Source of the DNA: Monocercomonoides exilis PA203
Taxonomy: Eukaryota > Protista > Preaxostyla
Assembly (NCBI GenBank): GCA_001643675.2
Contig: LSRY02000008.1
Location: forward strand, 1,612,001 to 1,676,000
Reading direction: 5' to 3'
Length of the DNA stretch: 64,000 nucleotides
Of this stretch, positions 10,076 through 42,822 are shown piece by piece. The notes beneath the pieces were generated by a model. That model had not been told where the DNA came from, did not search any database, and was given only the letters and a program-made list of their open reading frames with translations. Positions within the stretch are counted from its first letter, which is position 1. Each line of letters opens with the position of its first letter. The translations under genes and the position numbers were made by a program.

Positions 10076-10089
10076 ATTTGTTTATTTTG

Positions 10090-17108: not shown

Positions 17109-17139
17109 TTTTATTATTAATAAAATTTATTTATTAATA

Positions 17140-17755
17140 CAGTCTAAATCGGATATAATCACATCGGTTTTTGCACAACTTTTTGTGATTATATCCGATT
17201 GTGATAATATGCGATGCTGCTTAACACAGAAAAAAATAAAAATTAATTACAGATATCGCATAAAATACCCGACATCGCACAAAATACCGGACAAGATCGA
17301 TTTCACAACAACTGCAAGAGGAATAATTCTGACAATTTTCCTCAAAATACATCTCTTCAATACAAACTCAATTGATAAATGTGACTTTCTAAACAGCTTC
17401 ATTTGTGCTCAGAAAAATTAAATGTCGAAAACTCGGAAAAACTCAAAATCCAATTTCTCCGAGATTTTTTAAATAATTTTCTGTTAGCACAAATGGAGCT
17501 ATTTTGAAAGTCTCGTTCATCAAATGAGTTTGTATTGATGAGATGTATTTTGAGGAAAATTGTCAGAATTATTCCTCTTGCAGTTGTTGTGAAATCGATC
17601 TTGTCCGGTATTTTGTGCGATGTCGGGTATTTTATGCGATATCTGTAATTAATTTTTATTTTTTTCTGTGTTAAGCAGCATCGCATATTATCACAATCGG
17701 ATATAATCACAAAAAGTTGTGCAAAAACCGATGTGATTATATCCGATTTAGACTG
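17140..17755. mobile_element. pogo/Tigger-like non-autonomous TIR element forming the centre of P1 (616 bp)
   Basis: TA|CAGTCTAAATCGGATATAATCACATCGG terminus (TA-CAGT ends are typical of pogo/Tc1-type elements) and a perfect 17-bp subterminal inverted repeat 17147-17163/17184-17200. End symmetry is not independent evidence, because the element lies on the palindrome axis. Confidence 0.55.
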
Positions 17756-20791: not shown

Positions 20792-21527
20792 CCACCAGCC
20801 CTGCCCTCTTCAACTCAACAGTTGAGTTCCACAACTCTCTCATATAAATATTTCTTCCACTTCTTCTTTCTTTCTATTTTTCTTCAAGCATCCCTCAAAA
20901 TCATATAATCCATCTTCTCTTTCCCTTCTTTCTTCGCTTTCATCAGATTTTCATAAAACTTTCTCTTTCAATCGAAGTTCCAAAAAAAATATTTCTTCTT
21001 CTCAATCTCTCGTCAGACTCCTTCTTCTGTCATTTCATCAGTTTTTTTCTTTTTTTTTCTTTTCTTTTGGCATGACTGCACTATATGCCTCACAAAGCAA
21101 TAAAAGGACTCCTCTTCTATTCGTTTCCATTGTTGAGCCCGCATTTTCCTTTATCTATACAAAAACCGTTGAACCTTTTGCTGAGCAAAAATGTCAAAAC
21201 GCCATCTTTCCATATTCCTTGCGAGTGCATTGGCATTGGGAATTTGTGCAAACATTCCAATATCATTAAAAGAAAATATTTGAAAAATTGAAAAAGAAAA
21301 ATTGAAAAAGAAACATTTTTATTTCATGAGCTTCAAAAATAATCACACTTCATTTACATATTCTTCTTCATCATCATCTTTTGTCTTTCAAAATATTGCT
21401 CCTTTCTGCTTGCAAAACCCATCTGCTATGTCTCAGCTGCCAGTATCACAGCCAATAGCATTGCTTCTCTTCTGCTCCAAAAATTGCTGCTTATTTCCAA
21501 TCTCAGCTTCGCTCGCACTCGAACAAT

Positions 21528-22982
21528 TCATGCAACCAAAATCTTAAAGACTGACGAGTATGACGAAGAAAGCGAAGAAGAGGAAGAGAAAAAAAATAAC
21601 GATGATGAAAATGCTCCTGTTCCAATCGAACTTTTATCTTTGCCCGTCCCAATGACCGAAATCTTCTTTTCTCCAATCTTAATAGTTGTTGTCTCGCTTG
21701 TGTGATTTCCTTCCATCAGCGTGATTGCCAAGCTAATCTGCACCTCACACATCTCAAACGCCTTCTTCACTGTCAGACATGGATTTGATTCATTTGACCC
21801 ACAAAGTGGAGATGTATCATTTCCATTCGCTGACACATAGATCGTCTTGTCCTTCAGCCATTCCTTCTTTTCTGTGTACTGAAAATACCAGGTGTTTGCA
21901 TTCGAGTAGTTGTATGCATAACACATTCTCTGTTCATTCGTGTTTGTGGTGTAGCATTCGCAAAATGGATTTCCTGAGTTCAAATAGACATCGTAAGTAT
22001 CAACATATTCAACATCATGCCCATATGGAGTGGATGTAGTTCTGCACTTGCATTCATGGAAGAACAAAAAATAACAATAGAATGTATTATTTTGATCTGT
22101 TTGCTTATTTGGATGAAAATATAATCCTCCTCCATATCCCATTGCTGAACATGAAATAAACTGAATGCTCCTCATTTTGAACTGAGTCGCAGGGATATTT
22201 TGACAACACATCCCTCCGCCACTATTTCCAGACAGCGAGCATGAAGTGAAACTGCAGTCAAACACACATGCACCCTCCCCACCTTCATTTTCAGCTCCAA
22301 TGCATCCTGATCCTGAAACATAAAAATTATCTAAATAAAGTCCTCCTCCAGCGCCATTTGCTTTACAATCCTGGAATTCACATCCGCTGATCCGAACACA
22401 TGATGAAATTAATACAACATACAATCCCCCTCCAGCATTGTTTTGAGCATTGCAAGCGTTGAATAAATTGTTTGTTATATCAACTGACTTGATTGAACGG
22501 CACATGATTCCGCCTCCGCCATAATATGCATAGCAGTCGTTGAATGCACAATGAGAAACTGTTAGTTCTCCTGAATTGAGGTTAAACATTCGAATTGCTC
22601 CACCGTTAGAAGCTTCATCTGCGTAATCATCTTTGTTTCCAGTCGTCTTTGATCCATTCCATTCGCACCAAGTGAATGAATTTGCTCCATTGAATGTTGC
22701 GTTTTGTCTCCCTGGAGTCAACTTTCTGTCTGATGTTCCTTCGCAAACAACATTTTTTGTTCGACAACACCCAATGAATGATGTGTTCGAAACAGATAAG
22801 GAAGCCAAGGGGCTGTTCAGAGAAGGAACAATTCCGCCATCATATGCGTCGCAAACTGATGAGAACGAGCAGCTGCTCATAAAACACGAGGTTTGGGTTG
22901 ACGTAGTTGTTGAAGGCGAGCATTCCGATGTTGCTGTTGAAATATTGAAAAATGTCAGGTGAGAGAGGGATACAAGGAGCAT
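21528..22982 (-). CDS. Cassette C, right-arm copy, intact core
   Basis: 484-aa ORF with all family motifs, ending in a Ser/Phe low-complexity tail. Confidence 0.8.
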   Translation of the reverse strand: MLLVSLSHLTFFNISTATSECSPSTTTSTQTSCFMSSCSFSSVCDAYDGGIVPSLNSPLASLSVSNTSFIGCCRTKNVVCEGTSDRKLTPGRQNATFNGANSFTWCEWNGSKTTGNKDDYADEASNGGAIRMFNLNSGELTVSHCAFNDCYAYYGGGGIMCRSIKSVDITNNLFNACNAQNNAGGGLYVVLISSCVRISGCEFQDCKANGAGGGLYLDNFYVSGSGCIGAENEGGEGACVFDCSFTSCSLSGNSGGGMCCQNIPATQFKMRSIQFISCSAMGYGGGLYFHPNKQTDQNNTFYCYFLFFHECKCRTTSTPYGHDVEYVDTYDVYLNSGNPFCECYTTNTNEQRMCYAYNYSNANTWYFQYTEKKEWLKDKTIYVSANGNDTSPLCGSNESNPCLTVKKAFEMCEVQISLAITLMEGNHTSETTTIKIGEKKISVIGTGKDKSSIGTGAFSSSLFFFSSSSSLSSSYSSVFKILVA

Positions 22983-23534
22983 TGAGGGAGTTGAAAGGAA
23001 TAGGGCTTGATTCTCTCACTGTAATTCTTCCTTCATATTCACTTATTTGCCATTTTCTGATATTTCCCTCCAATCAGCTTGCCTTGCCTCTGAGCGCAAT
23101 CTCGAAAAAATATCCCTGTAAGTTTGCTCCAATTTCTTCTTTCTCTTATCCTGCTTTTTAAATGAATCTTATTAAAAAATAGAAAAGCATTTTCCCCCTT
23201 CAATATCACCAATCAGAAACAGCATTCCAATGCACTTCGCTATCCGCATTCAACAAAATCTCTCTCTTTTTCGACTGTTTTCTTCTTTTGCCTTCTTTCA
23301 AAATTCCATTCGCATCTATTTCCATTGAAATTTCAGCAAATATCTTATCATCTTTTAAAAAAAAATGGGAGAAAAATATGAAAGAAATAAAAAACTGAAG
23401 AAATATTAAATTAAATATCAAGAAATACACATAATATATACATATGAAAGAAAATATGAAAATTAATTCGAAATAAAATATTTAAAACTAAATATAAAAC
23501 ATACGGAAAACCAGCACCATTCACTTTTCGCAAT

Positions 23535-24002
23535 CTTCCCCTTCTTCTTCCCCTTCTTCTTCCCCTTCTTCTTCCCCTTCTTCTTCCCCTTCTTCTTCCC
23601 CTTCTTCTTCCCCTTCTTCTTCCCCTTCTTCTTCCCCTTCTTCTTCCCCTTCTTCTTCCCCCTCTTCTTCCCCTTCTTCTTCCCCTTCTTCTTCCCCTTC
23701 TTCTTCCCCTTCTTCTTCCCCCTCTTCTTCCCCTTCTTCTTCCCCCTCTTCTTCCCCTTCTTCTTCCCCTTCTTCTTCCCCTTCTTCTTCCCCCTCTTCT
23801 TCCCCTTCTTCTTCCCCCTCTTCTTCCCCTTCTTCTTCCCCTTCTTTTTCCCCCTCTTCTTCCCCTTCTTCTTCCCCCTCTTCTTCCCCTTCTTCTTCCC
23901 CTTCTTCTTCCCCTTCTTCTTCCACTTCTTTTTCCCCTTCTTCTTCCCCCTCTTCTTCCACTTCTTCTTCCCCCTCTTCTTCCCCTTCTTCTTCCCCTTC
24001 TT
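23535..24002 (-). repeat. Mirror copy of the (GAAGAAGAAGGG)n minisatellite, ~470 bp
   Basis: (CCCTTCTTCTTC)n tract, in frame throughout (EEEG ORF 23521-24018), about 380 bp shorter than the left-arm copy. Confidence 0.97.
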
Positions 24003-24340
24003 TTCTCATCATCCTCATAAAATTTCTTTTCCTCTTCTCAATCTTGAGCCAAATGTCTCCTTTTATTGCTTCATCGGTTTTCCGATCTTTATTCGATCGC
24101 TTCGACTCCTTCTTTTCAAATCGCTGTTCAAATCTTCAAATCCCTCCTCTTTTCTCCCTTTCAATTTTTGCACCTGCTCACTCCTCTATTCACCCCTTTC
24201 ATTCATTCATCTCAGCCATCATTCCAAAAAATACCCTTCAAATGGCAATCTTTCCATGTTCCATATTCATTCATTCATTCACAGAATATATCCAAGCAAA
24301 ATTCTTAATTCGATGGAGGTGGAGGTGGAAAAATAACAAA

Positions 24341-24456
24341 TATGATGAAAAAATATGATGAAAAAATATGATGAAAAAATATGATGAAAAAATATGATGA
24401 AAAAATATGATGAAAAAATATGATGAAAAAATATGATGAAAAAATATGATGAAAAA
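24341..24456 (-). repeat. 13-bp minisatellite, mirror copy (TATGATGAAAAAA x9)
   Basis: Read directly from the sequence. Confidence 0.95.
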
Positions 24457-27400
24457 CAAAATAAACAAATCCACACCTTTAACAATGGTCACACTTCGCT
24501 GACTATCCCTTCTTCTTCTTCTTCTTCTTCTTCTTCTTCTTCTTCTTCTTTTTGCTCCTCCCCAATTGTTGTTCCTTTCTGCCTTCACTCCCATCGCATC
24601 CATCTCTTCAATGTGTTGTTCCTCAATATCCCTATCCCTCTGCTCTCTTTTCTCTCCCTCTTTTGCCTCCCCCACTCCTTATAAAATGAATCTCCTCCAG
24701 ACATCCAAATAGAATCTTCAAATACAAATTCCATTTTGCTGAAAATGGCCTTCACCTTTTCTATCAAACACATTCCTCAAAATAATTCCTCATTTACCAT
24801 CTTCTGCTCTATCTTTATTTTTATTTTTATTTCTCTCTTTCTCTTTCTCTTTCTCTCTCTCTCTCTTTCCTTCTCTCTTTCTCTCTCTGGAATATTTGGA
24901 AAAAGCCTCTCTTTCAAAAGGGCAAATCCAAATCCGGCTGTTCATGTTTCCTCAAACCATCCCAATGCCCGATGAACAACAAGAGAATCTTCTGATGATT
25001 AAAATGCTCAAATATTAAAAAATATATCAAAATCAATCCGCAGACTCATTGAAGATATAAACATGAATATTAACCTTCTGGCTCGAATTTTCTTTTCTCA
25101 TCGTATCTTCCTCTTCTTCCTCTTGCACCTTTCAAAATATCGCTTCTTTCACCGAACAAAGCCCATCTGCCCCTTCTTCGCTCCTTTCTACTCCTAAAAA
25201 TCATTTACTTCCAATCCTTGGTCTTATTTCCACTTGAATAACTTCACAAACTCCGTTCTGTAAAAAACTGGAAAAGAAGATAATTCCATCAGAATAACCC
25301 CTTCCCATCCCTTTCCGCTGTATTGCCTTCTTCTTCTCTCCATTTCCTCTAAAATATCAACGCCCCTCCACCAAATATCACAATCCCTGTCTCCTCATCT
25401 CCCATGCCCTTCTTCCAACCAATAAAAAACAAATACCTCCATCCTTTTTCTGTCTCTTTCCATTGCAAAACACCCTCTCGTAGTCAGCCCTTCATCTTCC
25501 TCTGTCTCCACACCTCCAATGCAAAGTGCCAGCGCTGATGTTCCTTCTTCCTGTCTTTCTCCACCTCCGCCTCCAACACTTGCCCTGCAAATGAGAGGCG
25601 CGGCCAAACGGTTCGCAAAATAAATAATATAAAAATTTGAAGAATATTTTTCTTCACTTTTTTTTCTTCAATCCCACTTTTCCTTCTTATCAAACATAAG
25701 CCCACAAAATCTCTTCTCTTTGTTCCGCCTCATATGCCTCCCTCCTCTCTCTCCCTGCATTTGAAAAAAAAAAATATCCCTTTTCCATATCTCTCCATCT
25801 CTTATCCTCCTCTCCAATAAATATATTCCATTCACTCCACCTTTCTTGTTTTCCCTCTTATCCCACCTCCTCAACAGCAAATTCCTTTTCTCAAATAATA
25901 AACGCAACTTCCACACCTTCCAACTCACAAAAATCGAAAAAACTACCCCACAAAAGTCTATCCCTATCCATCTCCCACGTATCCATTTTGTCTCTTAAAC
26001 CTCCCAAAAACACCTCTTTCTCCCCCCAAAAAAATATCCTTTAATCGTTCCATTCCCTCTCTAAACCCTGCCTCCTCCAAGAACTCAACTCCTTCACCCC
26101 ACACCATAAATCCATCCTATTGTTATCGCATTGTCTTCATATGCCCATTCAGCCACGGCACATCGAGTAGGACTTTCTTTTCTTTTGTGGCTCTTATTCG
26201 TTATGGAACATGATCAAGCAATGTCAAATGCTCAGAAACTGTCAACGGGGTCAGATTCCGAGGTTTAAACAAAGACAGGTTGACCAAGTGAAATATTTCC
26301 AGTGAAAATGTGGGGTATTACAAAAGAATGTTTGCTTGATGAAAGATGAAATTGTTCATATTGATTGATGAATGGCTGTGGAGCAACAATATTTTCGATG
26401 GAAATGATGAATTTTCAATGTATGTAATTTTTATTGTTCTGTTGATTGTGAAGATGTTATCATCCGTAACCTCTCCAAAGTCGTGATTCAGACAACTTAT
26501 TTAAAATGAACAATTTATTCCATGCAGAGCAGAACAGCGAGGAAGCGAGACAAATGTTATGTTACAAATATATTAGAGCCAGAATGTATTTTATCATAAA
26601 TGTTTATGTGACTTGTTATTAACTCAACATGCACAATCGATAGAAATGTGATGAAAAATGAAATTTAATGGAGCAGAAATCAACGGGGTTGGAAGATATC
26701 CAAGGCAAAAAGGAAGAATAACCAAATTCAATGAAAAGGGAGCGTTTTTTAAAAAGAGGAAGAAGACATTTTCATTTTTAAGTTTGTTGGAAAGATTGGG
26801 GCAAATAACTGAAACAGGAGATTGAAATCAGTTTGGACAGAACAATGCGCCTTTCTTTGGAGAAGAAGGACAAGACATTGATTTTACGGACTGAGGAGAG
26901 GGATGGAACTGCTTTTCATTGCTTGGCTTGAGAGGCGAAAAAACGAGAAAAACAGACAGTTTTGCGTAATACGGCAGCTGGAGGCAAATTACAGGCAAAA
27001 TGGACTTTTATCGTTTGACCTTTGTCTTCAGCCTTCTATCATTGAAACGTTATTCACAAGAGCAGAGAACGAGGTTGCGATGCTGAGAATATCTTCTGAC
27101 AGAAGATACATAGTATTCAAACTTGAAAATAACATCGCATTCACCATCTTTATCGTCTTTATCTCTGTCATTGCCATCACCGCTGTCATTATCTTCTTCA
27201 TCTTCATTAAAATTATATTGAAGCATTTTTATTATTTGTGTATTATTCGAGCGGAATCAGTGCTCAGGATTGGAAATAAGCAAGTTGTTGGAAGCAGAAC
27301 AGAATCACTTTCATTGATGTTGAGATTGGCAGCAGAAGCAAAAAAGGCGAGTTTTGTTGGCAGAAAAGAACAATATTTTGAGAGGCACTCGAAGAAGAAG

Positions 27401-28099
27401 AAGAAAGTGTGTGAAGATTGGCAATAAATATATTTTTAGAGTTTGCTTTGTATTAATTTTTTTTCTCAAATTTTTCACATATTTATTTTTTTTATTTTTT
27501 TGAGGGATTAAGATTTATGGAAGGACATTTTCAGGCAATGAATGAACATGGGGAAAAGAGCACATTTGATGCTTTTGAGAAAGCAGGCAACACAATTTTT
27601 TTGAGAATATCGAAGAATGAGCTGGAGGAAATCAATGAAATGAATGGAAGAGGAGGGATTTGAAGATTTATGTTGAATTTTGAAAAAGAAGAAGGGGAAG
27701 CGACGGAAAAGAATAATCGGAAAATTGAAGAAATGGCTGAAGAAGAAATGTGACAGGAAGTCAAGAAGGAAATGAAGATGAAGAAAAGGAAGCAGATTGC
27801 GAAAGGAAAATGGTACTGGTTTGTGATATTTTGTATTACATTTAAAATATTTTTTTTCTTTTTTTTTTTTATGATGACAGGGAGTTTTGCATGAATATCC
27901 AAAAGGGATGAATGCGAATGGAATATGGAAAGAAGGAAGAAAACGGAAACAGAAGGAAAAAAAAAAGATTTAGGCGATAACATTCCTATCAGAAGAGGCG
28001 AGCGAAGACAAAAAAAGATACTGAAACTTATTGGGATATTTTGCAAAATTTTTCTGAATGAAGGGGAAGAGAAGGAAACGTTGAAGGAAAGAAATTTCT

Positions 28100-29668
28100 G
28101 TGAGAGAATCTCTTATCCAATCTTCAACCCCATTCCTCTCATCAATCTTCATTACCCTTATATCCCTATCTCACCTGACATTTTTCAATATATCAACAGC
28201 AAATGAGGCATGTTCACCTGCAACAACTACGTCAGCCCAAACTACATGTCTGATGAGCAGCTGTTCATTCTCATCAGTTTGCAATGGGTATGATGGAGGG
28301 ATTGTTCATTCCCTCAACAATCCTTTAGCTTCATTGTCTGCGTCAAACACCTCATTCGTTGGGTGTTGTCGGGCAAGAAATGTTGTATGTGAAGGAACTG
28401 CAGACAACAAGCTGACTCCAGGGAGACAGAATGAAACAGAAAATGGAGAAAATTCATTTATTTGGTGCGAGTGGAATGGATCGAGGACAACAGGAGAAAG
28501 CGACTCGTATGCTGATGGAATATCGAGCGGAGGGGCCATCTGCATGTACAATCTCAATTTCGGAGAACTATCTGTATCTCATTGCTCATTCAATGATTGT
28601 TATGCACATTATTCGGGAGGTGGTATTCATTGCTACAACATCAAATCTGTTGATATTACAAATAACATGTTCAATTCATGCACTGCTCAAACATGGATTG
28701 GGGGAGGAATGTGTATTTATGTGATTTCAACATGTGTTCGGATCAGCGGATGTGAATTTCAGGGTTGCAAAGCAAATTATTATGGAGGAGGACTTTTTCT
28801 TGAAAATTTTCAGGTATCTGGATCAGGATGCATTGGAAATGAAAATGGTGGAGGGGAGAGTGCATGTGTGTTTGACTGCTGTTTCACTTCATGCTCATTG
28901 ACAAACAATGGAGGTGGAGGCATGTTTTGTAAAACTGTTCCTGCGACGCAATTCAAAATGAGGAGCATTCAGTTTATTTCATGTTCTGCAATGACAAGGG
29001 GAGGAGGACTATATATGGAGCCAAACAAACAAACAGCACAAAATGAAACAATTTATTGCTATTTCCTCTTCTTCCATGAATGCAAATGTTCGGCCAATGT
29101 TCCATATGGCCATGACATAATCTATGCAGATTATTATAATGTCTTTTTGAATTCAGGCAATCCGTTCTATGAATGTTATACAACGAACACAGATGAGAAG
29201 AGAATGTGCTATGCGTATAATTACTCGAATGCAGGTGCCTGGACATTTGATCAATCAATGAAAAAGGATTGGCTGAAGGACAAGACGATATATGTTTCGG
29301 TGAATGGAAATGATAATTTTGAGTTGTGTGGGGCAAATGAAACATTTCCTTGTCTGACAGTGAAGAAGGCATTTGAAATGAGTGAGGTGCAGATAAACTT
29401 GGCAATCACGCTGCTGGATGGGAATCACAAAAGCGAGGCAACAACAATTGAGATTGGATCAAAGAAGATTTCAGTCATTGGGAGAGGCAAAGATAAGAGT
29501 TCGATTGGAACAGGAGCATTTTCATCAACAAGATCGCTGTTCAGCGTGTCAACAGGTCATCTTAGAATGAGTCATTTGAAAGTCGATTGTAACTCAAATA
29601 TAAATCCTTCGCCGAATGTGGCTGTGGTGTCTGATGGGAACTATTTATTTTGCTTAGAGGTTGTATAG
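28100..29668 (+). CDS. Cassette E, chimeric at the P1/P2 junction
   Basis: 522-aa ORF. The first ~127 aa are nearly identical to B; the 3' region is shared with F and F'. Confidence 0.8.
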   Translation: MRESLIQSSTPFLSSIFITLISLSHLTFFNISTANEACSPATTTSAQTTCLMSSCSFSSVCNGYDGGIVHSLNNPLASLSASNTSFVGCCRARNVVCEGTADNKLTPGRQNETENGENSFIWCEWNGSRTTGESDSYADGISSGGAICMYNLNFGELSVSHCSFNDCYAHYSGGGIHCYNIKSVDITNNMFNSCTAQTWIGGGMCIYVISTCVRISGCEFQGCKANYYGGGLFLENFQVSGSGCIGNENGGGESACVFDCCFTSCSLTNNGGGGMFCKTVPATQFKMRSIQFISCSAMTRGGGLYMEPNKQTAQNETIYCYFLFFHECKCSANVPYGHDIIYADYYNVFLNSGNPFYECYTTNTDEKRMCYAYNYSNAGAWTFDQSMKKDWLKDKTIYVSVNGNDNFELCGANETFPCLTVKKAFEMSEVQINLAITLLDGNHKSEATTIEIGSKKISVIGRGKDKSSIGTGAFSSTRSLFSVSTGHLRMSHLKVDCNSNINPSPNVAVVSDGNYLFCLEVV

Positions 29669-32222
29669 ATGAGCGTTTCTTTTTTCATCAGAGCCGAATC
29701 CTTTTTATTTTTTTTAAATTTAATTTGCGATTTTATTTCGATGGGCAGATTTTTGCGCAACTGAACTTTTCCATGTTATACTTCTTTTTACAATATTAAA
29801 ACAGTATTAAACAAATTGTACCATTTCTTATAACGTTTTCTTTTAGGCGCATGTAAAAAGAAAAATAAACTATTTCTTAAAAAATATGAAAAGTTCAAAT
29901 TTTAAACTTATATTTTTTTATTTTTATTTTTATTTCTTGAAATGAATACAGGTATTTATTTTTATTTTTATTTTATTTCATTTTTTATTTCATTTTTTTT
30001 TTTTTGATTAAATTTTTTCTTTGGTTTGTAAGCTAAGATGGTTATTAACTGTTCTATTTTATTTATTTTTATTGTGCTCTTTCAGATTTCTGTTTTCTTG
30101 TTCATTGCAGAATGTATTAATTACTAGTCAATTGAATTTAGTTTACTGAAGTGTTGGAAAGCCTTTGCTCTTTTATTGTGTTTTCTTTTTAAATTGAATA
30201 ATGTATGCTATTTGGTATGTTGTAATATTGCTGTGTGCAATTGCAGAAATGAAACAAGGAGCACTGTCAAAAATTAAAAAACAATTAAAAATCTATCACA
30301 ATGTGCTTTAATTCTTAAATCCAGAGTGATGATTTGAAACTGTAATTTGTAATCTCAACCATGTTTTTCAAGCTGTATACAGCTTGACGCAAACTTATTG
30401 ACGATTAAATATGCACAAAACATTTGTAATGCAGGAATTAATACGAATTTTCAAGTATTTTTGTACTGTTCATCAAAAATGTGTTATTAAAAAGAAAAAG
30501 AAAAATAATGTTCAAAAATATCAAATTAATCAAACTCTCAGCTATTTATTAGCTCAACAATTGTTCCACTTTATTGCTAATTTTCGTTTTATGCCTGAAA
30601 AACTGGGTTAAAAATTTTTGAAATCGTGTCCATTTAAAATAATTCAAAATTCAAAATTTCATAACTTAATTTCGAAACGAAAAAATGTGGGGGAAAATAT
30701 GAAACTTCAAGCTTTTTCATTGAAATAATTTGCACGGTGGATGAACTTTTTGTGATCCAAAAATATAAGCAAAACGGGTTTATTCATTCGAATCATTCAC
30801 ATGTGTGTGATTCTTTTTGAAAAGTCGCAAATGTTAAACATTTTGAATTAATGATAATGTTTCTAATTTGATCAGTGTTCACTTTAAATCCATCAAATTT
30901 TATCATTATTCAAACTTGATTTCACAAACCAATTTGATGCGAAAATATATCATCATGGAGAAATTTGATGGATTTAAAGTGAACACTGATCAAATTAGAA
31001 ACATTATCATTAATTCAAAATGTTTAACATTTGCGACTTTTCAAAAAGAATCACACACATGTGAATGATTCGAATGAATAAACCCGTTTTGCTTATATTT
31101 TTGGATCACAAAAAGTTCATCCACCGTGCAAATTATTTCAATGAAAAAGCTTGAAGTTTCATATTTTCCCCCACATTTTTTCGTTTCGAAATTAAGTTAT
31201 GAAATTTTGAATTTTGAATTATTTTAAATGGACACGATTTCAAAAATTTTTAACCCAGTTTTTCAGGCATAAAACGAAAATTAGCAAAACAATAAAGTGG
31301 AACAATTGTTGAGCTAATAAATAGCTGAGAGTTTGATTAATTTGATATTTTTGAACATTATTTTTTCTTTTTTCTTTTTTTAATAACACATTTTTTTGAT
31401 GAACAGTACAAAAAATACTTGAAAATTCGTATTAATTCCTGCATTACAAATGTTTTGTGCATATTTAATCGTCAATAAGTTTGCGTCAAGCTGTATACAG
31501 CTTGAAAAACATGGTTGAGATTACAAATTACAGTTTCAAATCATCACTCTGGATTTAAGAATTAAAGCACATTGTGATAGATTTTTAATTGTTTTTTTAA
31601 TTTTTTGACAGTGCTCCTTGTTTCATTTCTGCAATTGCACACAGCAATATTACAACATACCAAATAGCATACATTATTCAATTTAAAAAGAAAACACAAT
31701 AAAAGAGCAAAGGCTTTCCAACACTTCAGTAAACTAAATTCAATTGACTAGTAATTAATACATTCTGCAATGAACAAGAAAACAGAAATCTGAAAGAGCA
31801 CAATAAAAATAAATAAAATAGAACAGTTAATAACCATCTTAGCTTACAAACCAAAGAAAAAATTTAATCAAAAAAAAAAAAAATGAAATAAAAAATGAAA
31901 TAAAATAAAAATAAAAATAAATACCTGTATTCATTTCAAGAAATAAAAATAAAAATAAAAAAATATAAGTTTAAAATTTGAACTTTTCATATTTTTTAAG
32001 AAATAGTTTATTTTTCTTTTTACATGCGCCTAAAAGAAAACGTTATAAGAAATGGTACAATTTGTTTAATACTGTTTTAATATTGTAAAAAGAAGTATAA
32101 CATGGAAAAGTTCAGTTGCGCAAAAATCTGCCCATCGAAATAAAATCGCAAATTAAATTTAAAAAAAATAAAAAGGATTCTGCTCTGATGAAAAAAGAAA
32201 CGTTCATCTATACAACCTCTAA
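29655..32222. repeat. Palindrome P2: near-identical arms ~29655-30900 and 30961-32222, 60-bp spacer; diverged homology extends into cassettes E and F
   Basis: ...catcaaattt[60 bp]aaatttgatg... The arms differ mainly in homopolymer lengths. The mirrored stop codons are at 29668 and 32208. Confidence 0.95.
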
Positions 32223-33971
32223 GAAAAATAAATAGTTCCTATCGGATGTCTCAACCACATTCAGCGAAGGATTTATATTTGAATTACAATCAACCTTCAA
32301 ATGATTCATTCCAAGATGACCTGTTGATACACTGAACAACGCTCCAGTTGATGAAAGTGCCCCTGTTTCAATCGAACTCTCCGTCCTCCCTTTCCCAATG
32401 ACCGAAATCTTCTTTGATCCAATCTCAATTGTTGTTGCCTCGCTTTTGTGATTCCCATCCAGCAGCGTGATTGCCAAGTTTATCTGCACCTCACTCATTT
32501 CAAATGCCTTCTTCACTGTCAGACAAGGAAATGTTTCATTTGCCCCACACAACTCAAAATTATCATTTCCATTCACCGAAACATATAACGTTTTATCTTT
32601 CAGCCAATCCTTTTTCATTGATTGATCATATGCCCAACTCCCCGAATTCGATGCATTGTATCCGTAGCATACTCTCTTGTCATCTGTATTTGTGGTGTAA
32701 CATTCATGGAACGGATTTCCTGATTCCAAATAAAGATTAAAGTAATCATAATACATCACATCATGACCATATGGAGTGGATGTAATCCTGCACTTGCATT
32801 CATGAAAGAAAAGGAAAAAGCAATAAATCCCATCACCTGGTGGTGTTGGTTTATTCGGATCAAAGCTTAGCCCTCCACCATACGATGAAGCATTACATGA
32901 AATAAATTGAATGCTCCTCATTTTAAATGTGACAGGAACAGTTCGACAATACATGCCTCCGCCACTTGAACTTGAAAGGGAGCATGAAGTGAAACCGCAG
33001 TCAAACACACACGCACTCTCCCCTCCTCCATTTTCTGCTTCAATGCATCCTGTTCCTGAAACCTGAAAATCATTAAGATAAAGTCCTCCTCCATTATTAT
33101 TTGCTTTACAATTCTGGAATTCACATTCGCTGATCCGAGCACATGATAAAATCGAATAAGCATGAATTCCGCCACCTGTATTTGCTTGTGCTGTGCAGCT
33201 GCTGAATGTGCTGTTCTCACACACAATTGTCTTGATTGCATGGCAAAATACACCTCCGCCATGCGCATCAGAATAGCAGTTGTTGAACTTGCAAAACAAA
33301 ATAGACAACATTCCTTCTCCCAAATTGAACATGCATATCGCTCCCCCGCTCGATATACCATCATCCCATGAATCGCCTTTTCCCGCTGTTTTTGACCCAT
33401 CCCATTCGCACCAAATAAATGTATTTGCTCCATTGAATGTTTCATTTTGTCTTCCTGGAGCCAGCTTATTAGTTTTAGTTCCTTCGCAAACAACATTTCT
33501 TGTCCTGCAACACCCAACAAATGATGTGTTTGAGGGCAGACAAGGAGGCCAAGGGGTTATTGAGGGAAGGAACAATTCCTCCATCATACGCATCACAAAT
33601 CGATGAAAATGAGCAACTGCTCATAAAACAAGTGGTTTGGGCTGACGTAGTGGTTGAAGGCGAACATGCCTCATTTGCTGTTGAAATATTGAAAAACAAA
33701 TATGTTGGAAGAGAAAAATACAGAAAAAGAGAAATGCAGTTCGCTCACTGAAGCACTTCTTTCTTTGCCTCCTTCTCTTCTCAATGCTTCTTGGTGAAAT
33801 TTCACAAAATACCTCAACATGGTCGCATCCCTTTTTCCATCTTTTCTGCCCCTTCTTCATCGTCTGCTTTCCCCATATCTCTTTTTCTTCTATTGAAATC
33901 TTCTGCTTGTTTTCAAAAATCCATTTTCTGTCATCGCTTTTAAATATACATGCAAAAGTCCCTGCTATCAT
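32208..33971 (-). pseudogene. Cassette F, left-arm copy, split by homopolymer indels; 3' end belongs to P2
   Basis: ORFs 33621-33971, 33475-33699 and 32208-33596 equal the mirror ORF 52091-53854 up to LLDGNH. There is an extra G at ~33535 and a shorter A run at ~33726. Confidence 0.8.
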
Positions 33972-34704
33972 TAAAAAAATAAATTATAAATTTAGAAATA
34001 TTAAATAAAATAAAATACAAAATATAAATATAAACAAACAAACAAACAAATAAATAAAAATACAATACAAATTATGAAAAATCAGTACCGTTTTTTTATC
34101 GGCTTTTTCCACTTCATTTTCTGCTTCTTCTTCTTCTTCTTTTCCTCCTCCTCCTCCTCCTCTAAATATCGCTCCTTTTTGCTAACACACCCGCCTGCCC
34201 CATCTCTGCCGACGATCCAAATGCCAATAGCATTTTCCCCATTTTACTCCAAAAAAGAAAAGAAAAGAAAAGAAAAGAAAAGAAAATAGCCAAAGTCCAG
34301 TCCTCAGATTCCCTGAAACAAAAAACTTCAACAACTTGATTCCAATAAATAGACCAGAATGGCGAAGAAGGCAAAGAAGTAATTATTGAAGAAGACATTG
34401 AACGACAAATAGAAGGAGATGATAAAACTGATGAATCAGGAGAAGTGGATGATGATGATGATGATGATGACCAAGAAGAAGTTTTTATAAAAATTATCTA
34501 CAAAAAAGTTAGTGATTATAAATGAGCATTTGACAGCATTTTCACAGTTAGCAGCTCCAAATGCTCTTCCTCCGCCTTTCTGCTCCTTCTTTGCAATATC
34601 TAATGTCTGCTCGAAAAAATACCAAGAGAAGGGAAATTGAAAATTAGACGCTTGCAGATTTAAAGTTGACATGAAATGAGCTGAAGCTGTTGAATCACTT
34701 CTTT

Positions 34705-36177
34705 TTAGAGAAAAAATTGCAGGAAAAAGAAAGAAGGAGCAGATGAAGATGAGAAGGATGAAATATAAAAATTCGTTTTTGTTCCAATCGAATTTTTATT
34801 TTTGCCCGTCCCAATGACAGAAATCTTTTTTGATCCAATATTAATTGTTGTTGCCTCACTTTGATGATTCCCTTCCAGCAGCGTGACTGATGAGCTCAGC
34901 TCTTCCAAGCCCGTCTCCACTGCGTGTCCCACCGTCTTGCAAGGTGCTGGCTCACCCATCCCACACAGCCCACTCGAGTCGCTTCCATTAGCACCCACAT
35001 ACAGAACCTTCGTCCAATCCTTCAGCCAATCCCACTTTTCTGTGTGCTGAAATGTCCAACTTGTCGAACTCGATGCAATATATCCGTAGCACACTCTCTG
35101 ATCATCTGTGTTTGTTGTGTAACATTCATGGAACGGATTCCCAGAATCCAAATATAAATTGTAATAATCCAGATATATCATATCGTGACCATGTGGTGGA
35201 TCACCCAAGCATTTGCATTCATGGAAGAAGAGGAAATAGCAATAAAGCCCATCAGCTGGTACAGTTTGCTTTATTGGTTCCAAATGAAATCCGCCTCCCC
35301 TGGTCGATGCGTTACACGAAATAAACCTGACGCTTCTAATCTTGAATTGATTGGGAACATTTCTGCAATACATGCCTCCTCCCCATGTTCCAGTTATTGA
35401 GCATGAAGTGAAACAGCATTCAAACACGCACGCACTCTCCCCTTCTCCACTTTCTGTTCCAATGCATTCTTGCCCCGAAACATTAAAATTTTCAAGAAAA
35501 AGTCCTCCTCCATGGCTATATGCTTTGCAATTCTGGAATTCACATCCGCTGATCCGAACACATGTTGAAATAGTAAAAACGAACACCCCTCCTCCAATCC
35601 ATGTTTCAGAAGCACAAGCATTAAATGTGTTATTCACAATCTCAACTGATTTAATGCTATAGCATGAAATCCCTCCGCCTGCGTAATACGCAACACATTC
35701 ATTGAATGCACAATGCGAAACTGAAACAGTGGCAGACGATTGACCAAACATGAAAATAGCACCACCGTTCGAAGTGCCATCGGCATATGTGTTGCCGTTT
35801 CCTGTTGCCTTCGATTCACTCCACTCGCACCAAGTGAATGAATTTGCTCCATTGAATGTTTCATTCTGTCTGTCTGGTTTCAATAGAACCTCTGCAGTTC
35901 CTTCACATTTCACATTCCTTGTCCTGCAACACCCAACAAACGAGGTGTTTGAGGCTGTCAAAAAGACCAAGGGGTTGTTGAGTGAAGGAACAATACCTCC
36001 ATCATATATGTCGCAAACAGACGAAAATGAGCAACTGTTAATAAAACATGAGGTTTGGATTGACGTAGTGGTTGAAGGCGAACATGCATCATTTGCTGTT
36101 GAAATATTGAAAAATGTGAGTTGTGAGAAGGAAACAAGGAGCATTGAGGGAGTTGAAAGAAATGGAGCTTGATTCAC
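34705..36177 (-). CDS. Cassette G, left-arm copy
   Basis: 490-aa ORF, family core, with the third type of downstream module (WTKVLYVGANGSDSSGLCG). Confidence 0.8.
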   Translation of the reverse strand: MNQAPFLSTPSMLLVSFSQLTFFNISTANDACSPSTTTSIQTSCFINSCSFSSVCDIYDGGIVPSLNNPLVFLTASNTSFVGCCRTRNVKCEGTAEVLLKPDRQNETFNGANSFTWCEWSESKATGNGNTYADGTSNGGAIFMFGQSSATVSVSHCAFNECVAYYAGGGISCYSIKSVEIVNNTFNACASETWIGGGVFVFTISTCVRISGCEFQNCKAYSHGGGLFLENFNVSGQECIGTESGEGESACVFECCFTSCSITGTWGGGMYCRNVPNQFKIRSVRFISCNASTRGGGFHLEPIKQTVPADGLYCYFLFFHECKCLGDPPHGHDMIYLDYYNLYLDSGNPFHECYTTNTDDQRVCYGYIASSSTSWTFQHTEKWDWLKDWTKVLYVGANGSDSSGLCGMGEPAPCKTVGHAVETGLEELSSSVTLLEGNHQSEATTINIGSKKISVIGTGKNKNSIGTKTNFYISSFSSSSAPSFFFLQFFL

Positions 36178-39100
36178 TCACCAAAACATTTCCTTTCCCT
36201 CTCTCATTTTCCATAAGCCTACCATGCCTCTCAATGAGATGTTCATCAAGATTCAAATGAGCCTGAGCTCCCTTTTCCTTCCTCTTCTCCTGCTTCTGAA
36301 ATGCATATTTCCAAAAGAAAAACTTCTTTTCCTTCAGTGCCTCCAAATTGAAACAAGAACATAATCTTCTTCGTCATTTGCTTTCCCAATAATCTCTTTT
36401 TTCTTCTGTTGTCTTCTTCTGCCTTTTTCCCACATTCCATTCGCATCCATTGCTCTTGACGACTCATGCAAATGCACTTTTGCCATTAAAAAAATAACAA
36501 TAAAAATTCAGGGGAAAAAGATAAACCGAAGAAATATTAAATAACATATGGAAAAAAAGAAAAGAAAATTGAAAGAATATTTGAAAATAAATTTGAAATA
36601 AAATATCAAAAATATGACTTTTGAGATATAATCCTTATACCTTTTTCTTCTCGAAACCTTCCGCTTCATTTTCCGCTTCTTCATTTCCCTTCTCTTCTCC
36701 TCATTCTTCTTCTCCTTCTGTTGTTCCCTCGTTTCTCTCATCTCAGTCTCATAACCCTTCTTCTCTTCCTTGATTCTTTCAATCCATATCTTCCTTCTCT
36801 CTCTTCTGCCTTCCTCTCAAATAAAACAAGGCACTTCCATCCCTCCTTTCCTCATCCTCTCCAACCATGCAACTCACACAAAAAAGAACACTCATCCCGC
36901 CATTCCCTCTGCCTCGAGCACAGTCAACACAATACGTGTAGAAACAGCATGCATTGAGTGCTGTGTGCTGCTCCATAGCCGTAGTGCTGCTTCGCTCATC
37001 CCCAGCACTTCAAGCGCACATCCCATTTTCTGTCATGGCAATATCAGGAACATCAGGGACATGCCCGTCCTTTTATCCCTTGGCTCTCTTCACACATGTT
37101 GCATGTGCTTGCCTCAATTCATCCCTCGTTGCTGCCAATGCTCGTCTGCTTCAAAAATGACAAAAACGAAGAAGAAGAAGAAGAAGAAGAAGAAAGACTT
37201 ATCCGCCTGTTGCAGTTGGCGGCAGATATGACGAAGTCGCATTGTTGCCATCGCCCGCAACAACTGTAGCAAAACAGCCCAACCCTATATTAGCAGCCGA
37301 ACAGAGCCTCAAAAAATACTGAGCTTTGCCAGCAGAAGTCGAAATACTGTTGATGGAGACGGGAAGATGATAATTCCCAACTCAAATTGCTGTATTACTG
37401 CCCATGGCAACGAAACGCCAAGCTTTCCACTCGCCCTTGTAGCAGCTCGGTGAAGGTTAAAGAACGGTAACAGCTGCAGGGTGCTTCACTTGTCTTGCCA
37501 TTCTTGCAGGAACACAGGCAGAGACTGATGCTTTTGTCACAAATTATTCTTTTTTTCATTTAAGCACGAATTTTTGGAAAGTCTTGCTTCTCTGCGCATA
37601 TTCCACAAAACACACATGCATCTTTCCGACGGCAGCAACAGCTGTTTTACTCCCATTGATGTTGCTGATCTCCACTCTCATTGCTTTGCATTGTTTTCTA
37701 AGTTTTTATTCACAAAAATTGTCCTTCCCTCGATATCGCCTGCCACTTTCCTTGCCAAAAAAGCTTCTCCTCTGCCTAGCATTCCAAAATGCTATATAAT
37801 TTTGTGCAGATTTTGTCCTTCACAGAATTCCATCCACTTTTTGTCTTCATTCAACAAAACATCAGTTGAATTTGTTTTCACCTCTTGTTCCAAATAAAAA
37901 TCATATATCTTCCGTAACTTCATTTGATTCCCAATGGCTATACAATAACAAGCTCCGTTCTCATCGCATTGCTCTACAAAGCGGAGATTGGCCATTTCAA
38001 CAATAACTCACGTTCCTGCACTTGGGAGAGGATACAGATGGAAATATCTTCGCAATCAATAGAACAATGAAAATTACATACAATATCATTTTTGTGTGAT
38101 TGATGAAATTGTTGCATTCGCCTTGGCCATCCAATTGACAAAAGTCATCAGGCAGAATTCCAAAAATATTGCATCTCACCAATTTTTGTTGTCACACAGG
38201 AAATAATATTTCTAGCTTTACAGATAATGTGCATTCACGGATTTCTCATTCTGTGAATGGACGATTCCAGTTTTTTCAAATCTGATGATCATGAAATCCA
38301 TTACAAAAAAGACTCAAACCAACAAATCATTTTCATATTTTTTTTCTTGGCAATGGCTGAGTGAAAATGGAAGTTGTTGAGAGGGGCGTGTGGAAACAAA
38401 AATTAAACTTGTTTTGGGGATATTTTATTCATTTTCTGAATTTCGTGTGTTTTCCAGTGTTTGATTGAAAGGAGAGATTGTGGCTGATCAGAGAAGCGGA
38501 TGCGCACAAGAGAAAAAGGTGCTTGCAGCAGTAATGTTTGATGAGATGATTTTTCAGCAGTTCCTTTTTGGAAAAGAAAGGCGAACGAGGGAAACAATGT
38601 TTGTGAGAAGGAGCAGGAAAGGGGAGGGGGATGGAGAGCGTGGGGTGAAGTGCCTGCTTGGTGGAGGAACACATTGCAGCTGGGATTTATGCACACATAT
38701 ATTTTATTTTGAAGGAGGAGACAAAAGCGATTTGGATGATGTATTTTAGGGAGCTGACGAGTGGGGATGTTTGGGGATGCAGTCATGCTCATCTGGGCAG
38801 TCGAGGCAGCACAGGAAAGGGAATGTGCGATTGCTTTGTGAGCCTTTCATGGTGAAAGAGGAGACAGGTTTGATGATTTGTTTCATGAGAATTTATATAT
38901 TTTATATTTTTTATTTTGTTTTTTTTTTTTATTGAAGATATTGAGTGAATTGCCGAAAGATGCATGGAAAGCCATCATATGTTGCCTGAGTGATGTCGAT
39001 GGAGCACAGATTGTTTTTTTTAAGCCTTGCTCGAAGAATGAGGAATGAGAAGAAGAAGAGATATTTCATAATTTTTTTTGGATTGAAGACTGGATGGAGG

Positions 39101-39683
39101 AAGATGGGAAGAGAAGAATGGTGAGAGCGAGGTTGAATGGGCAATGGAAGAGCGGGCGAGAACAACATTTAATTTTACTTTATTTGGAATTGGGTTTGAA
39201 AGGCGAAGGCGTGGTGTGGTGTGGTGCTTGGAGTGGATGATGTTGGGGTGAGAGGTATTTGGAGAGAGGCAAACAGGGGACGAGGGGAGTGAAGGGAAAT
39301 GAAGATATCTGGAGGTATTTTATTCTTGTTTGTTCATTTTCTTCATGTTCCATTTTTTATTTTTATTTGCATATTTTAATTTCATTGATGTGTGATGCGA
39401 TCAGGTGTTATGAGAAGCGCTGGGGGAGCATGAAACATGGGATGTGGAAACAGAACTTTTTTCTGGGACATTCCTGGAAGAAATTGGGAGAAATCAGCAT
39501 TTAGAAGAGTGTTTGGCAGAATGAGCGAGGCGGAAAAAACTGAAGAGAATGGGAAAAGGAATTTTTGTGGAATTCATTTACAAAAATCTTTTCGGAAGCA
39601 GCATCAGAAGAGGCAGGAAAATGAATACAGCCACATAATGATATATTTTGGCATGGCGCTAAGAAGCATGGGGAAGGAGGAGA

Positions 39684-41599
39684 ATGTATAGGAAGAATTT
39701 TCTTAGAGAAAATCGCATTTCTCCTCTATTTGCCAATTTTTCTCTTCACCTTCCATCCCTTTTGTATCCCTCTCCCATCTGACTTTTTTCGACATCTCAA
39801 CAGCAAATGGGGCATGCTCGTCATTGGCCAATTTCTTTTCCCAAACCACATGTTTTATGAATAGCTGCTCATTCTCATCACTCTGCGATGCGTATGATGG
39901 AGGGATTGTCTCTTCCCTCAACAATCCCTTGGCCTTTCTGACTGTCTCGAACACCTCGTTTGTTGGATGTTGTCGTACAAGAAACGTTGTATGTGAAGGA
40001 AATGCAGATGTCAAGTTGACTCCAGGGAGACAAAATACAACAGATAATGGAGCAAATTCATTCACATGGTGTGAGTGGAGTGGATCGAAAACAACAGGAA
40101 CGAATGATTCGTGGGAAGATGGTGCTTCTAACGGAGGAGCAATTTGGATGTTCAATCTGAGAAATGGAGAACTTTTTGTTTCACATTGTTTATTTAACAA
40201 TTGTTTTGCACATTGGGATGGAGGCGGAATCATGTGCCATACAATTAAATCTATTCAAATCGAAAATAATTTTTTTAATTCATGCTCTGTTCAAAACAAT
40301 GCCGGAGGAGGATTGTATGTGAATACCATTTCATCATGTGCTCGGATCAGCGGATGTGAATTCCAGAATTGTAAAGCAAACAATCAAGGAGGAGGGCTTT
40401 TGCTTCATTCTTTTGATGTTTCAGGAACAGGGTGCATTGGAACAGAAAATGAGGGAGGAGAGAGTGCGTGTGTGTTTGACTGCAGTTTCACATCATGCTC
40501 AGTTACCAGTTCATATGGTGGGGGCATTAGTTTATATAATGTCCCAGTCCAATTCAAAATGAGGAACATTCAGTTTATTTCGTGTTCAGCAGTATCACGA
40601 GGTGGAGGTTTGAGGTTGGAGCCAAACAAACAAACAGCGCCAAATGAAACAATTTATTGCTATTTCCTCTTCTTCCATGAATGCAAATGTTCGGCCAATC
40701 CTCCTTATGGTCACGATGCGTATTATGTTGATTATTATAATGTTTTTTTGAATTCAGGCAATCCGTTCTATGAATGCTACACCACAAACACAGATGACCA
40801 GAGAGTGTGCTATGCATACAATTATGCAAGTGCAAGTGCTTGGTCATATCAGCACACGGAAAAGAAGGATTGGCTGAAGAGAGGGATTCTCAATCGGTTT
40901 GTGGCTGTAAGCGGAGGTGGTGAAGAAGATCTGTGTGGGGTGAATGAATCATATGCATGCAGAACCATTGGTGTTGCAGTCATTCGGAGCGTGATTCAAG
41001 TGAGCCTGTCTGTTACGCTGATGGAAGGGAATCACACAAGCGAGACAGAAACAATTGAGATTGGAGAAAAGAAGATTTCAGTCATTGGGAAAAGAAGAGA
41101 AACATGTTCGATTGGAACAGGAGCCCTTTCATCTGTAGGAACGCTGTTCAGTGTGACGACAGGTCACCTTGGTTTATTGCACATGAAGGTTGATTGTAAC
41201 TCAAATATAAATCCTTCGCCGAGTGTGGTTGTGGTGTCTGATGGAGGTGGGTCACTCTCATTGGAGGATGTTGTGATCACCACGAGTAAAACAGGAGGCT
41301 ATGTGATGTCGTCGTCAGTGTTTGTGACGCCGCTGTCGCAGCTGTCGATGGTTGATGTGGAGATCAAAAATATGAATGTCTCAAAACCATTGTTTTCTGA
41401 GACGGATCTCTCTTCTTCTTCTTCTTCTTCATTGTCGTCATTGTTGTCATCTGCACCGTATCTGACAGCCACAGCATCAGAAGAGAGCATGGTGGTGAAT
41501 ATGAATGAGAAAGATTTGAGTTTGATTGAGGAGATCAGAGTTATTTGTGCAAATACAATCAGAGAAGAAGATTATATACTGCAACATGGAATGCAATGA
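39684..41599 (+). CDS. Cassette H, left-arm copy (ORF 39824-41599; 5' extension offset by a T-run indel at ~39738)
   Basis: 591-aa ORF with the core plus a longer downstream region (GHLGLLHMKVDCNSN...SLSLEDVVITTS) shared with I. Confidence 0.8.
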
Positions 41600-42586
41600 G
41601 AAGTGAATTTGTGATGAGTATTTATAAAATACGACTTTTTATCTAAAAGTTGAATTTTTAGATGTTGTTAGCTGCAGTTTTATTACGAATTGTCAAAGCC
41701 AGTAGCATTAAAAACTAACGAATAGATAATATGATTATAATATTGACATTGATGATTGGCGAATTTGAGATATGGTAAAATTAGTTAATTTTAATATTTA
41801 CAGTTTGTATTGTACAATTTTAACGGAACACTGAAAATCAACAGAAATAATTTATTATTTTTGTTGGGTAGGGTGAGTAATTTATTTGACCCTATTTTTT
41901 TTTCTCGTATATCTTTAAACAGTGCTTAAACATGATAAATATAATTTTAAAGTAATGAACGAAATAATTAAAAGATTAAACATTGATATTTTTAGCATGT
42001 AGTTTCTTTAGGAGAACCAATAAAATTGTAAATTTATTTGATTTTTTTATTAGTTAGCATTCTGCGCATGCATTCATATTCCGTATTAATGATGAAATTG
42101 AATTTTTTTTTTATCTTTTGACATTTTTAGTGTTTTCCTCAAAAGAAAAAAATGCCACTTTTTGAAAAATTTCATATATTTTGAAGCTTATATTTTTTTA
42201 CTGATTTAAAAAGTTTTTAGGCTGTTTTATTGACTTAAAATGGATGTTTGCTTTTCGTTAGTGTTCAAAATTGCTGATGATACGCAAAAAATTATTCGAA
42301 ACGAGAATTTTTCCACTTAAAATAATAATTGTTTAAAACCTTTCAAAATTTTGTTCACTGTCTCATGAAAAATTGTAAAAACAGATTTTTTTTATTCTTT
42401 TTGTTTTTAAACAGCATTAACATAAACTTTGTGGACGGATAAAAAATTTTTGAAAATTTTCATTTTTTTCGTGGAAAAAATTTTTTTCTCCAATAATTTT
42501 TTCTAATGAAATTGTGTGAAATTTGGGTGCATATTTGCTTATTTGAAAAAGCCCATGCTCTGTTCCAAACATTAACTGTTAATATA

Positions 42587-42822
42587 TGGATGATTATTTT
42601 TAATTCCATATTATCTCTAATAATAATATCGGTTTGAGAATTCACTTTGAATATTGATAAATGAACACTGAAAAGTGAAAAGGATTATTAAAGACATCAT
42701 CATCTTAATTTCAGCTTCGACATTAATTTTTTTTTAAAGTTGTTAAAAATCAACAACTTGATTGCAAAATCTCTTCCCAATGACAAACAATTGCTGAAAA
42801 GTCTACTACCCAAAAATATATT
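42587..42822. mobile_element. Degenerate copy of the ~257-bp MITE family straddling the P3 arm/spacer boundary (mirror ~43258-43471)
   Basis: TIR-like start tatatggatgattatttttaattccatatt. The stretch tcggtttgagaattcactttgaatattgataaatgaacactgaaaagtga matches ~2010-2059 (tcggtttgaatatttgttttgagtattcataaatgaacactaaaaagtga). Confidence 0.65.

Follow-up and report, generated by a model that had tools for sequence, protein, structure and literature searches.

Palindrome arms end in register inside coding cassettes

A 64-kb window of the oxymonad Monocercomonoides exilis PA203 genome (the 64,000-nucleotide stretch analysed here, contig LSRY02000008.1, positions 1,612,001 to 1,676,000; coordinates below count from its first letter) has a GC content of 36% and carries a coding cassette of 1.4 kb that is present in 14 copies of alternating orientation, set in a chain of palindromes (P0 to P3; Table 1). 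The outer arm ends that could be located fall in register inside cassettes, where they probably mark the points at which long, homology-anchored arm copying stopped, and they form a minority of the switch points amid family-wide mosaicism, which likely arose by ectopic gene conversion.

Arms were located by exact-match mapping. The exact inverted match of P1 stops at 6039/28482, the last C of tggtgcgagtggaatggatc; the stop in symmetry at a WCEWNGS motif, proposed in an earlier sequence-only reading of this DNA, is therefore real, the position of 6041 given there having been 2 bp off. The exact match of P3 stops at 32455/53607, just after ctgctggatgg, as that reading had placed it, while P2 stops at 29289/32587 near a KKDWLK motif, or at 29248/32628 if four substitutions are allowed. 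All three outer ends that could be located (P1, P2 and P3) are in register and in frame, with two cassettes joined at the same codon. Cassette cores fill 30% of the window, and a join at the same codon in all three ends requires homology. Past the P1 and P2 ends, similarity between the partners drops to the family background. B and E are 70.8% identical beyond P1, ranking 17th among 36 cassette pairs whose median is 70.9%, which confirms that the two are alike in their N-terminal part only; E and F beyond P2 are 73.8% identical (again rank 17 of 36). BLAST returned no match between the AT-rich sequence next to F and that next to F', and the regions lying beyond cassette 3' ends are unrelated. 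The arm ends are homology-anchored joins producing in-frame chimeras, as had been proposed, with F' and B both hybrid.

The further proposal that arms end at conserved motifs held for WCEWNGS, at the 96th conservation percentile against a null in which a random switch point is extended to the first mismatch, but not for LLDG (52nd) or the P2 end (19th-64th), which are ordinary. Because a run of identity continues until the sequences first differ, its visible end is not the crossover itself; at LLDG the first mismatch follows a shared block of 133 bp, and the P3 crossover may lie anywhere in that block. No general enrichment of tract ends in conserved windows was found, either in DNA (46 non-mirror ends, p=0.10) or at the protein level (314 right ends, p=0.16; 291 left ends, p=0.76). 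On another contig, P0012 and P0022 (MONOS_15868 and MONOS_15866) have in common an exact 67-residue tract that ends at the WCEWNGS position of B and E, and locus tags with a 'c2' suffix among the matches suggest more duplicated arms elsewhere.

Mosaic structure of cassettes B, E, F and F'

B and E share exact blocks at 28271-28482 and 27772-28219 (E coordinates), parted by a patch of nine substitutions at B 6251-6301. After WCEW the nearest relative of B is MONOS_14448 (P0033), whose N-terminus differs; further on, the E-type start of B gives way to a G-type segment of about 350 bp and an H-type segment of 272 bp. The gene model MONOS_14641 is identical to B over 344+99 residues, and E is represented by an identical 471-residue protein in NCBI and EukProt.

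Diagnostic sites among E, F and F' change partner repeatedly: F equals F' up to 29288, all three are equal over 29289-29421, E equals F at four sites in 29422-29434, and E equals F' at all 16 sites in 29473-29537 at which F differs from both; F again equals F' at 29545 and 29548, after which the sites are mixed. Base-level comparison thus bore out the earlier description of E matching F and then F' over about 100 bp, with four sites followed by a 110-bp exact run. The 110-bp match lies between direct, non-mirror copies. At the protein level the preceding 133-bp block (r1) is also common to P0016 (MONOS_16543), and among 202 proteins QINLAITLLDG occurs in E, F/F' and P0016 only. F' differs from MONOS_16543 at 0 of 5 residues in the adjoining patch (r2) and at 0 of 27 in the tail. 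From these sequence comparisons F' most plausibly consists of an F-type arm that joined a MONOS_16543-type cassette somewhere within the 133-bp perfect block and was later patched with 110 bp from E. F in turn shares 120 residues with MONOS_15630 from WCEW on, where F has no arm end.

The patching of F' might instead have been reciprocal, a 65-bp patch (r4) being swapped between F and F' through two successive inversions of the P3 interior. F' is indeed P0016-type on either side of r4 and E-type within it, and F is E-type at r2 and in r4 nearer to P0016 than to E (3 vs 8 of 23 residues). However, the r4 of F is a common type, to which, among 124 proteins, one is closer (2 differences) and five tie with P0016, and a single conversion from E to F' accounts for the pattern; we hold the swap to be quite improbable.

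Table 1. Positions of the cassettes, palindromes and junction features in the 64-kb window.
Feature	Position	Strand	Description
Cassette array A, B, C', D', D, C, E, F, G, H, H', G', F', I	2871..62456	both	14 cassettes
Cassette B	4874..6436	-	E-type N-terminus, then P0033-type, G-type (5614-5268), H-type (5276-5005)
Cassette E	28085..29665	+	527-codon open frame; B-type to 28482, then A/D-like, I-like, H-like, F-type, F'-type
Cassette F	32211..33696	-	Extra base at ~33534 in a short run
Cassette F'	52079..53851	+	F-type to 53607, P0016-type at r2 and tail, E-type at 53621-53730
P1	arms 6039-17355 / 17540-28482		Exact inverted match; centre 17356-17539 a decayed inverted repeat
P2	arms 29289-30900 / 30961-32587		60-bp spacer 30901-30960; 3' ends of E and F plus ~1.2-kb AT-rich non-coding arm
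P3	arms 32455-42800 / 43258-53607		457-bp spacer; carries F/F', G/G', H/H'
P1 outer junction	28463..28482	+	WCEWNGS motif; mirror 6058-6039
Block r1	29289..29421	+	133 bp, exact in E, F (32587-32455) and F' (53475-53607); P3 crossover window
Patch r2	29422..29434	+	E=F; F' differs at 4 sites, P0016-type at protein level
Exact tract E/F'	29435..29544 = 53621-53730	+	110 bp, direct copies

Switch points across the window and the family

Among the ten distinct cassettes we identified 41 tracts of near-identity, 36 of which touch the core and 30 of which remain after dropping six F' repeats of F. Four of these 30 non-redundant core tracts lie between mirror partners and 26 between non-mirror copies (15 on the same strand, 11 on opposite strands). 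In a permutation test insensitive to the clustering of conserved sites, 279 triplets holding no mirror pair were compared; 96 of them reached the lowest attainable p (1/2001), though triplets are not independent of one another. The best triplet of each of the ten cassettes had a z of 9.3-17.6, all ten being significantly mosaic without any mirror pair. For a family-wide survey, 195 non-window records gave 163 segments (at least 330 residues aligned, at least 50% identity), which with the ten window cassettes, less three short or near-duplicate rows, made a final set of 170 proteins with 61% mean identity. Exact tracts among these paralogues numbered 775, 112 and 45 at lengths of at least 28, 45 and 60 residues, vs 158, 4.1 and 0.1 expected under a pair-by-column null without recombination, and 155 sequences take part in the 775 tracts. 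Mosaicism is family-wide, and arm ends are a minority of the switch points in the window.

Because 26 of the 30 tracts are non-mirror and all ten cassettes are mosaic without mirror pairs, palindrome formation is not the main source of variants, and the suggestion that it creates them by itself was not supported. The outer arm of P1, a patchwork of 115 clustered substitutions, likewise implies that one formation event is insufficient.

Arms and centres of the palindromes

Arms of P1, P2 and P3 are more than 99% identical around their spacers, for P1 in its inner part and for P2 in its non-coding arm. We counted 7 substitutions in 5,700 bp of inner P1, 3 in the 1,225 bp of the P2 non-coding arm, and 1 substitution plus 10 single-base indels across the 10,346 bp of P3. 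The ten indels, single bases in runs, are likely sequencing errors, and P3 looks like one recent copy. The 115 substitutions of the P1 outer part are spread over 4,068 bp and leave identical blocks of up to 983 bp between clusters, where the 99.9th percentile of the null is 405 bp; the patchwork fits repeated conversion tracts, and ectopic overwriting of one arm may also have produced it. Arm identity is uniform in P3 and non-uniform in the P1 outer arm and in P0. Inverted repeats, now decayed, make up the centres of P0 and P1 (z 9.3 and 13.1; the halves of the P1 centre are 75% alike), and the spacers of P2 and P3 have no symmetry (z 0 and 1.7).

These features also bear on a de novo origin, in which a break would fold back at a short inverted repeat and copy an arm, its free end would be resolved by cassette recombination, and repeated rounds would build both the array and its chimeras. 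The almost identical arms of P3, ending in a homologous cassette, and the imperfect inverted repeats at the P0 and P1 centres fit such a course, and yeast fold-backs are, according to PMC7467729, mostly resolved by homology-mediated second steps. Nevertheless, it covers at most 4 of the 30 window tracts and leaves unexplained the patchy outer arm of P1, the direct-copy tract of E and F', and the G- and H-type segments of B; we judge it unlikely as an account of the array.

Several other features of the arms were observed. One arm of P0, the left, has a 362-bp insertion at 178-539, followed by 177 identical bases; it has terminal inverted repeats with TA on both sides, is absent from the right arm (1756/1757), and resembles a Tc1/mariner-type miniature inverted-repeat transposable element. 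Low-complexity arrays (a 13-bp tandem repeat and purine-rich 12-mer-like repeats; 10090-10208, 24338-24456, 10524-11400 and 23534-24004) differ in length between the P1 arms. GC skew is strong and flips at each palindrome centre and head region. Head-to-head regions retain faint inverted homology (69-77%; 6663-6912 vs 10353-11457, and 23470-24189 vs 27609-27858), and the divergent cassette pairs may thus sit inside still older palindromes. Where cassettes point, an AT-rich motif recurs at 68-77% identity (1960-2227, 42582-42706, 43352-43476, 55317-55405 and 62671-62937). Contig depth rises 10- to 25-fold at 30777-30880, beside the P2 centre, in three DNA runs, which suggests a multi-copy element there.

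Support for the junctions

Junction support was drawn from assembled contigs of public runs rather than from single reads, and the junctions compared were the E side of P1 and the F' side of P3. Runs X2, X3 and X4 are DNA; X1 to X4 derive from one sample, perhaps the window's own source, and attest read-level presence rather than biological replication, whereas X5 is an RNA run from a second study. The copy number of 31-mers in the window predicts a fall from three to one past 53607 and from two to one past 28482. In all three DNA runs (X2, X3 and X4; depth 384, 16 and 19) contigs stop exactly at 53607, past which an exact F'-type piece (53589/53590-53650) continues at depth 176, 6.5 and 8.9, or 0.40-0.47 of that before. 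In X2 an exact contig of 99 bp bridges the E-type patch and the F' tail, with flanks of 40 and 34 letters, and an X5 contig (28375-28482, 0 differences) stops exactly at 28482, in agreement with the 31-mer prediction. No letter differs between NCBI and EukProt in the proteins of E, B, C, D and G, of which those of E and B span the P1 junction, and the EukProt model of F' (P0051) ends at LAIT, 11 bp before the P3 end. Passages of PMC8767320 describe a short-read and a long-read assembly of M. exilis; judging by numbering and header style, the two protein sets appear to rest on different assemblies, EukProt on the earlier.

Mis-assembly, with the assembler or polishing having joined paralogues, is unlikely on this evidence, and we give it very little credence. 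The forks at 53607, the 99-bp contig, the X5 contig end, the concordant proteins of E and B, and the break of the EukProt F' model at the fork all speak against it, as does mosaicism that is family-wide and in frame. In its favour, homopolymer indels lie mostly in one arm of each palindrome, and multi-copy regions of the species' long-read assembly are described as poorly polished in the relevant passages of PMC8767320. Furthermore, none of the listed contigs extends 31 letters to either side of 28482 or of 53607 (for 28482, none among the 32 of 4,155 pieces listed), and a joint 28439>28581, at depth 3-10 and with a side of 22 letters, bypasses the P1 junction in three runs; this low-depth joint is probably a paralogue. 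Contigs leave uncovered 29647-29985 in X3, 53722-53748 in X3 and X4, and most of the F' end in X5, but because the contig sets are filtered such gaps prove nothing.

Frameshifts in C', D', F and H' (12167, 15184-15197, 33534 and 45314-45456) sit in base runs and are likely unpolished long-read errors rather than marks of pseudogenes, including the extra base of F. The indels of the P1 inner part and of P2 are nearly all deletions in the left arm. A 237-bp RNA contig of X5 (29607-29843) spans the E/F 3' end into the AT-rich arm and is possibly a truncated-cassette transcript, or DNA in the library.

A proposed course of arm copying and conversion

At each end the two flanks are homologous in their cassettes only, and every join preserves the frame. 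We propose that repair of a break would use the opposite arm as template, anchored on the inside by the inverted centre already present and on the outside by a paralogous cassette, whereby the arm would grow or be refreshed up to the outer cassette, in P3 as one recent 10-kb tract and in the P1 outer arm as several shorter ones. The observed pattern of 50-270 bp tracts would reflect their movement between any two cassettes in either orientation; such tracts could create perfect blocks like r1, serving as later anchors, and could also fray arm ends. Selection would keep the cassette frames open. Passages of PMC6759080 report that M. exilis lacks non-homologous end joining; the species is also reported to have a full homologous-recombination set, and this combination would favour such ends. 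Taken together, old inverted centres with arms refreshed or extended by homology-anchored copying fit the data.

A number of points weigh against this account. The nearly perfect arms of P3 could just as well stem from one fold-back event that made this palindrome de novo. At the centres of P0 and P1, decay need not indicate age, since these could be priming sites that were already present, and symmetry is absent from the spacers of P2 and P3. Family-wide, long-tract ends occur at about twice the expected number in the three palindrome-end zones, which gives some weight to preferred motifs: 13 vs 5.9 expected in the WCEW zone at tract lengths of at least 50 residues (16 vs 10.8 at 40), 11 vs 4.7 in the LLDG zone and 13 vs 5.7 in the KKDWL zone, counts reached in 1-36 of 400 simulations depending on zone and length cut-off. 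In none of the three zones does the count pass the 95% limit set for the whole scan, and the ends lack independence, related sequences being counted repeatedly. Since lineage-specific rates and two-allele modules are left out of the tract null, the excess of short tracts is overstated. Arm ends were examined in the DNA of this window only, and from one genome no direction or order of events can be read.

The cassettes and their gene family

Cassettes are N-terminal pieces of 400-700 residues, judged by sequence, of receptor-like M. exilis proteins of 2,300-2,600 residues. In tblastn searches two full-length relatives (2,447-2,545 residues) matched the window through residues 1-734 only, and no transmembrane or kinase part was found within the 64 kb; cassettes start mostly at about residue 137 of P0124. 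Near-length matches to cassette E (120 listed of 159) are all M. exilis gene models or unnamed records encoded by the window, with identities of 55-76% apart from E itself, and the short models among the matches listed are concentrated on few contigs. There are 81 matches to longer relatives, many of 2,000-2,600 residues and several with the Pfam family PF07714. A metagenome scan found no relative, and Pfam gave no family for any of the 12 open reading frames of the window.

Full-length relatives have a hydrophobic stretch near residue 2,000 and a match to PF07714. Four of the five tested passed its cut-off, over the C-terminal 95 positions alone (profile positions 161-257 of 258), and one had no match; as the match is partial, kinase activity of these relatives is only predicted from sequence. 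A structural model of cassette E (from 99 sequences; mean predicted local distance difference test score 65) shows repeated short beta strands over residues 45-333. Comparison of the model with the PDB gave nothing at E<=0.001, the top rows being mostly non-significant tailspike and pectinase beta-helices, and PF13229 scores below its cut-off for the cassette product.

None of the nine cassette cores examined contains a stop codon, and the ratio of nonsynonymous to synonymous substitution (dN/dS) is 0.27 at a dS of 0.86; the cores are consequently under purifying selection or refreshed from selected genes. A split of dN/dS by conserved and variable columns (0.08 and 0.68) was circular and was not used.

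The array could be a donor archive of the Borrelia vls or trypanosome variant surface glycoprotein (VSG) pseudogene type, with palindromes that keep and remix ectodomain copies through arm copying and ectopic conversion, and that donate segments to full-length, expressed receptor-kinase-like genes. Each of the 14 cassettes carries the same N-terminal region of the ectodomain and lacks the rest, their frames are open under purifying selection, short models cluster on few contigs, and five exact tracts of at least 45 residues link short models to full-length proteins. Against this, tracts of that length are ten times rarer per pair between short and long proteins than between short ones (1.4 vs 14.1 per 1000), and no short-to-long exact tract of at least 33 residues includes a window cassette. 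Moreover, a vls-type archive needs a close expression site, of about 90% identity according to PMC11499132, while no full-length protein is more than 81% identical to any other member. No close expression site was found among 31 long proteins, whose best identity to any member is 59-81% and whose mean identity to the window cassettes is 52-66%; the search for long proteins extended to 2,610 residues among 7,988 candidates, alongside 120 of 159 near-length matches. We therefore offer the archive as a tentative idea and think it doubtful. Contigs of the RNA run match parts of E, though the level and source of a transcript cannot be read from contigs. Separately, in P0079/P0150, P0101/P0152 and P0096/P0154 short models share exact tracts of 45-64 residues with full-length receptor-like proteins, and these pairs would be the best leads for cassette-to-receptor transfer.

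Significance and comparison with known systems

The processes invoked here are already known, and what appears to be new is their arrangement: chained palindromes of truncated, selected and heavily shuffled ectodomain cassettes in an oxymonad. We found no description of such an array in the literature covered, which included three oxymonad genome papers and had supplements and most subscription journals outside its scope. The array gives a concrete identity to part of the 35% of the genome listed as 'unclassified repeats', and is a warning that many short M. exilis gene models are cassettes. Its exact junctions can be used to ask how a eukaryote reported to be without end joining builds and maintains palindromes; palindrome formation as a maker of variants is a minor part of this significance. 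If cassettes do feed expressed receptors, they would constitute a diversification system in a lineage without one described; it would be vls- or VSG-like but serve a signalling-type receptor, in a gut flagellate that has no mitochondrion, and the palindromes would be where its segments are stored and mixed.

The trypanosome VSG archive is likewise said to hold partial copies with segmental mosaicism. Unlike vls and VSG copies, M. exilis cassettes alternate in orientation within palindromes. Borrelia vls, as described in PMC11499132, resembles the present array in that incomplete copies with open frames represent the variable region of a larger, predicted surface protein and are segmentally mosaic, and differs from it in that among 31 long proteins of M. 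exilis there is no expression site of about 90% identity and full-length genes number in the dozens. The tyrosine-kinase-like family of M. exilis, according to passages of PMC6759080 and PMC8767320 the largest in the genome and overlapping the unclassified repeats, is the closest counterpart to the full-length relatives of the cassettes, with their length of 2,300-2,600 residues, hydrophobic stretch and partial PF07714 match; those passages make no mention of truncated arrays, palindromes or mosaicism.

Yeast fold-back inversions (PMC7467729) share with P0 and P1 an imperfect central inverted repeat and have an outer end at a dispersed repeat. They are single selected rearrangements, unlike the present array, in which the P1 arm is of mixed ages, the P2 and P3 centres lack symmetry, and most switch points are not arm ends. 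Palindromes of the mammalian Y and X chromosomes (e.g. human P6) likewise have arms of more than 10 kb, over 99% alike around a spacer and carrying gene copies, and for those of the P6 type PMC3723533 describes arm-to-arm gene conversion with multi-kilobase tracts. In contrast to these, M. exilis palindromes form a chain with shared cassettes at their borders, and their arms end in register within paralogous cassettes. The genes that they carry also trade short tracts with copies other than their mirror partners, which diversifies the sequences rather than only homogenising them.

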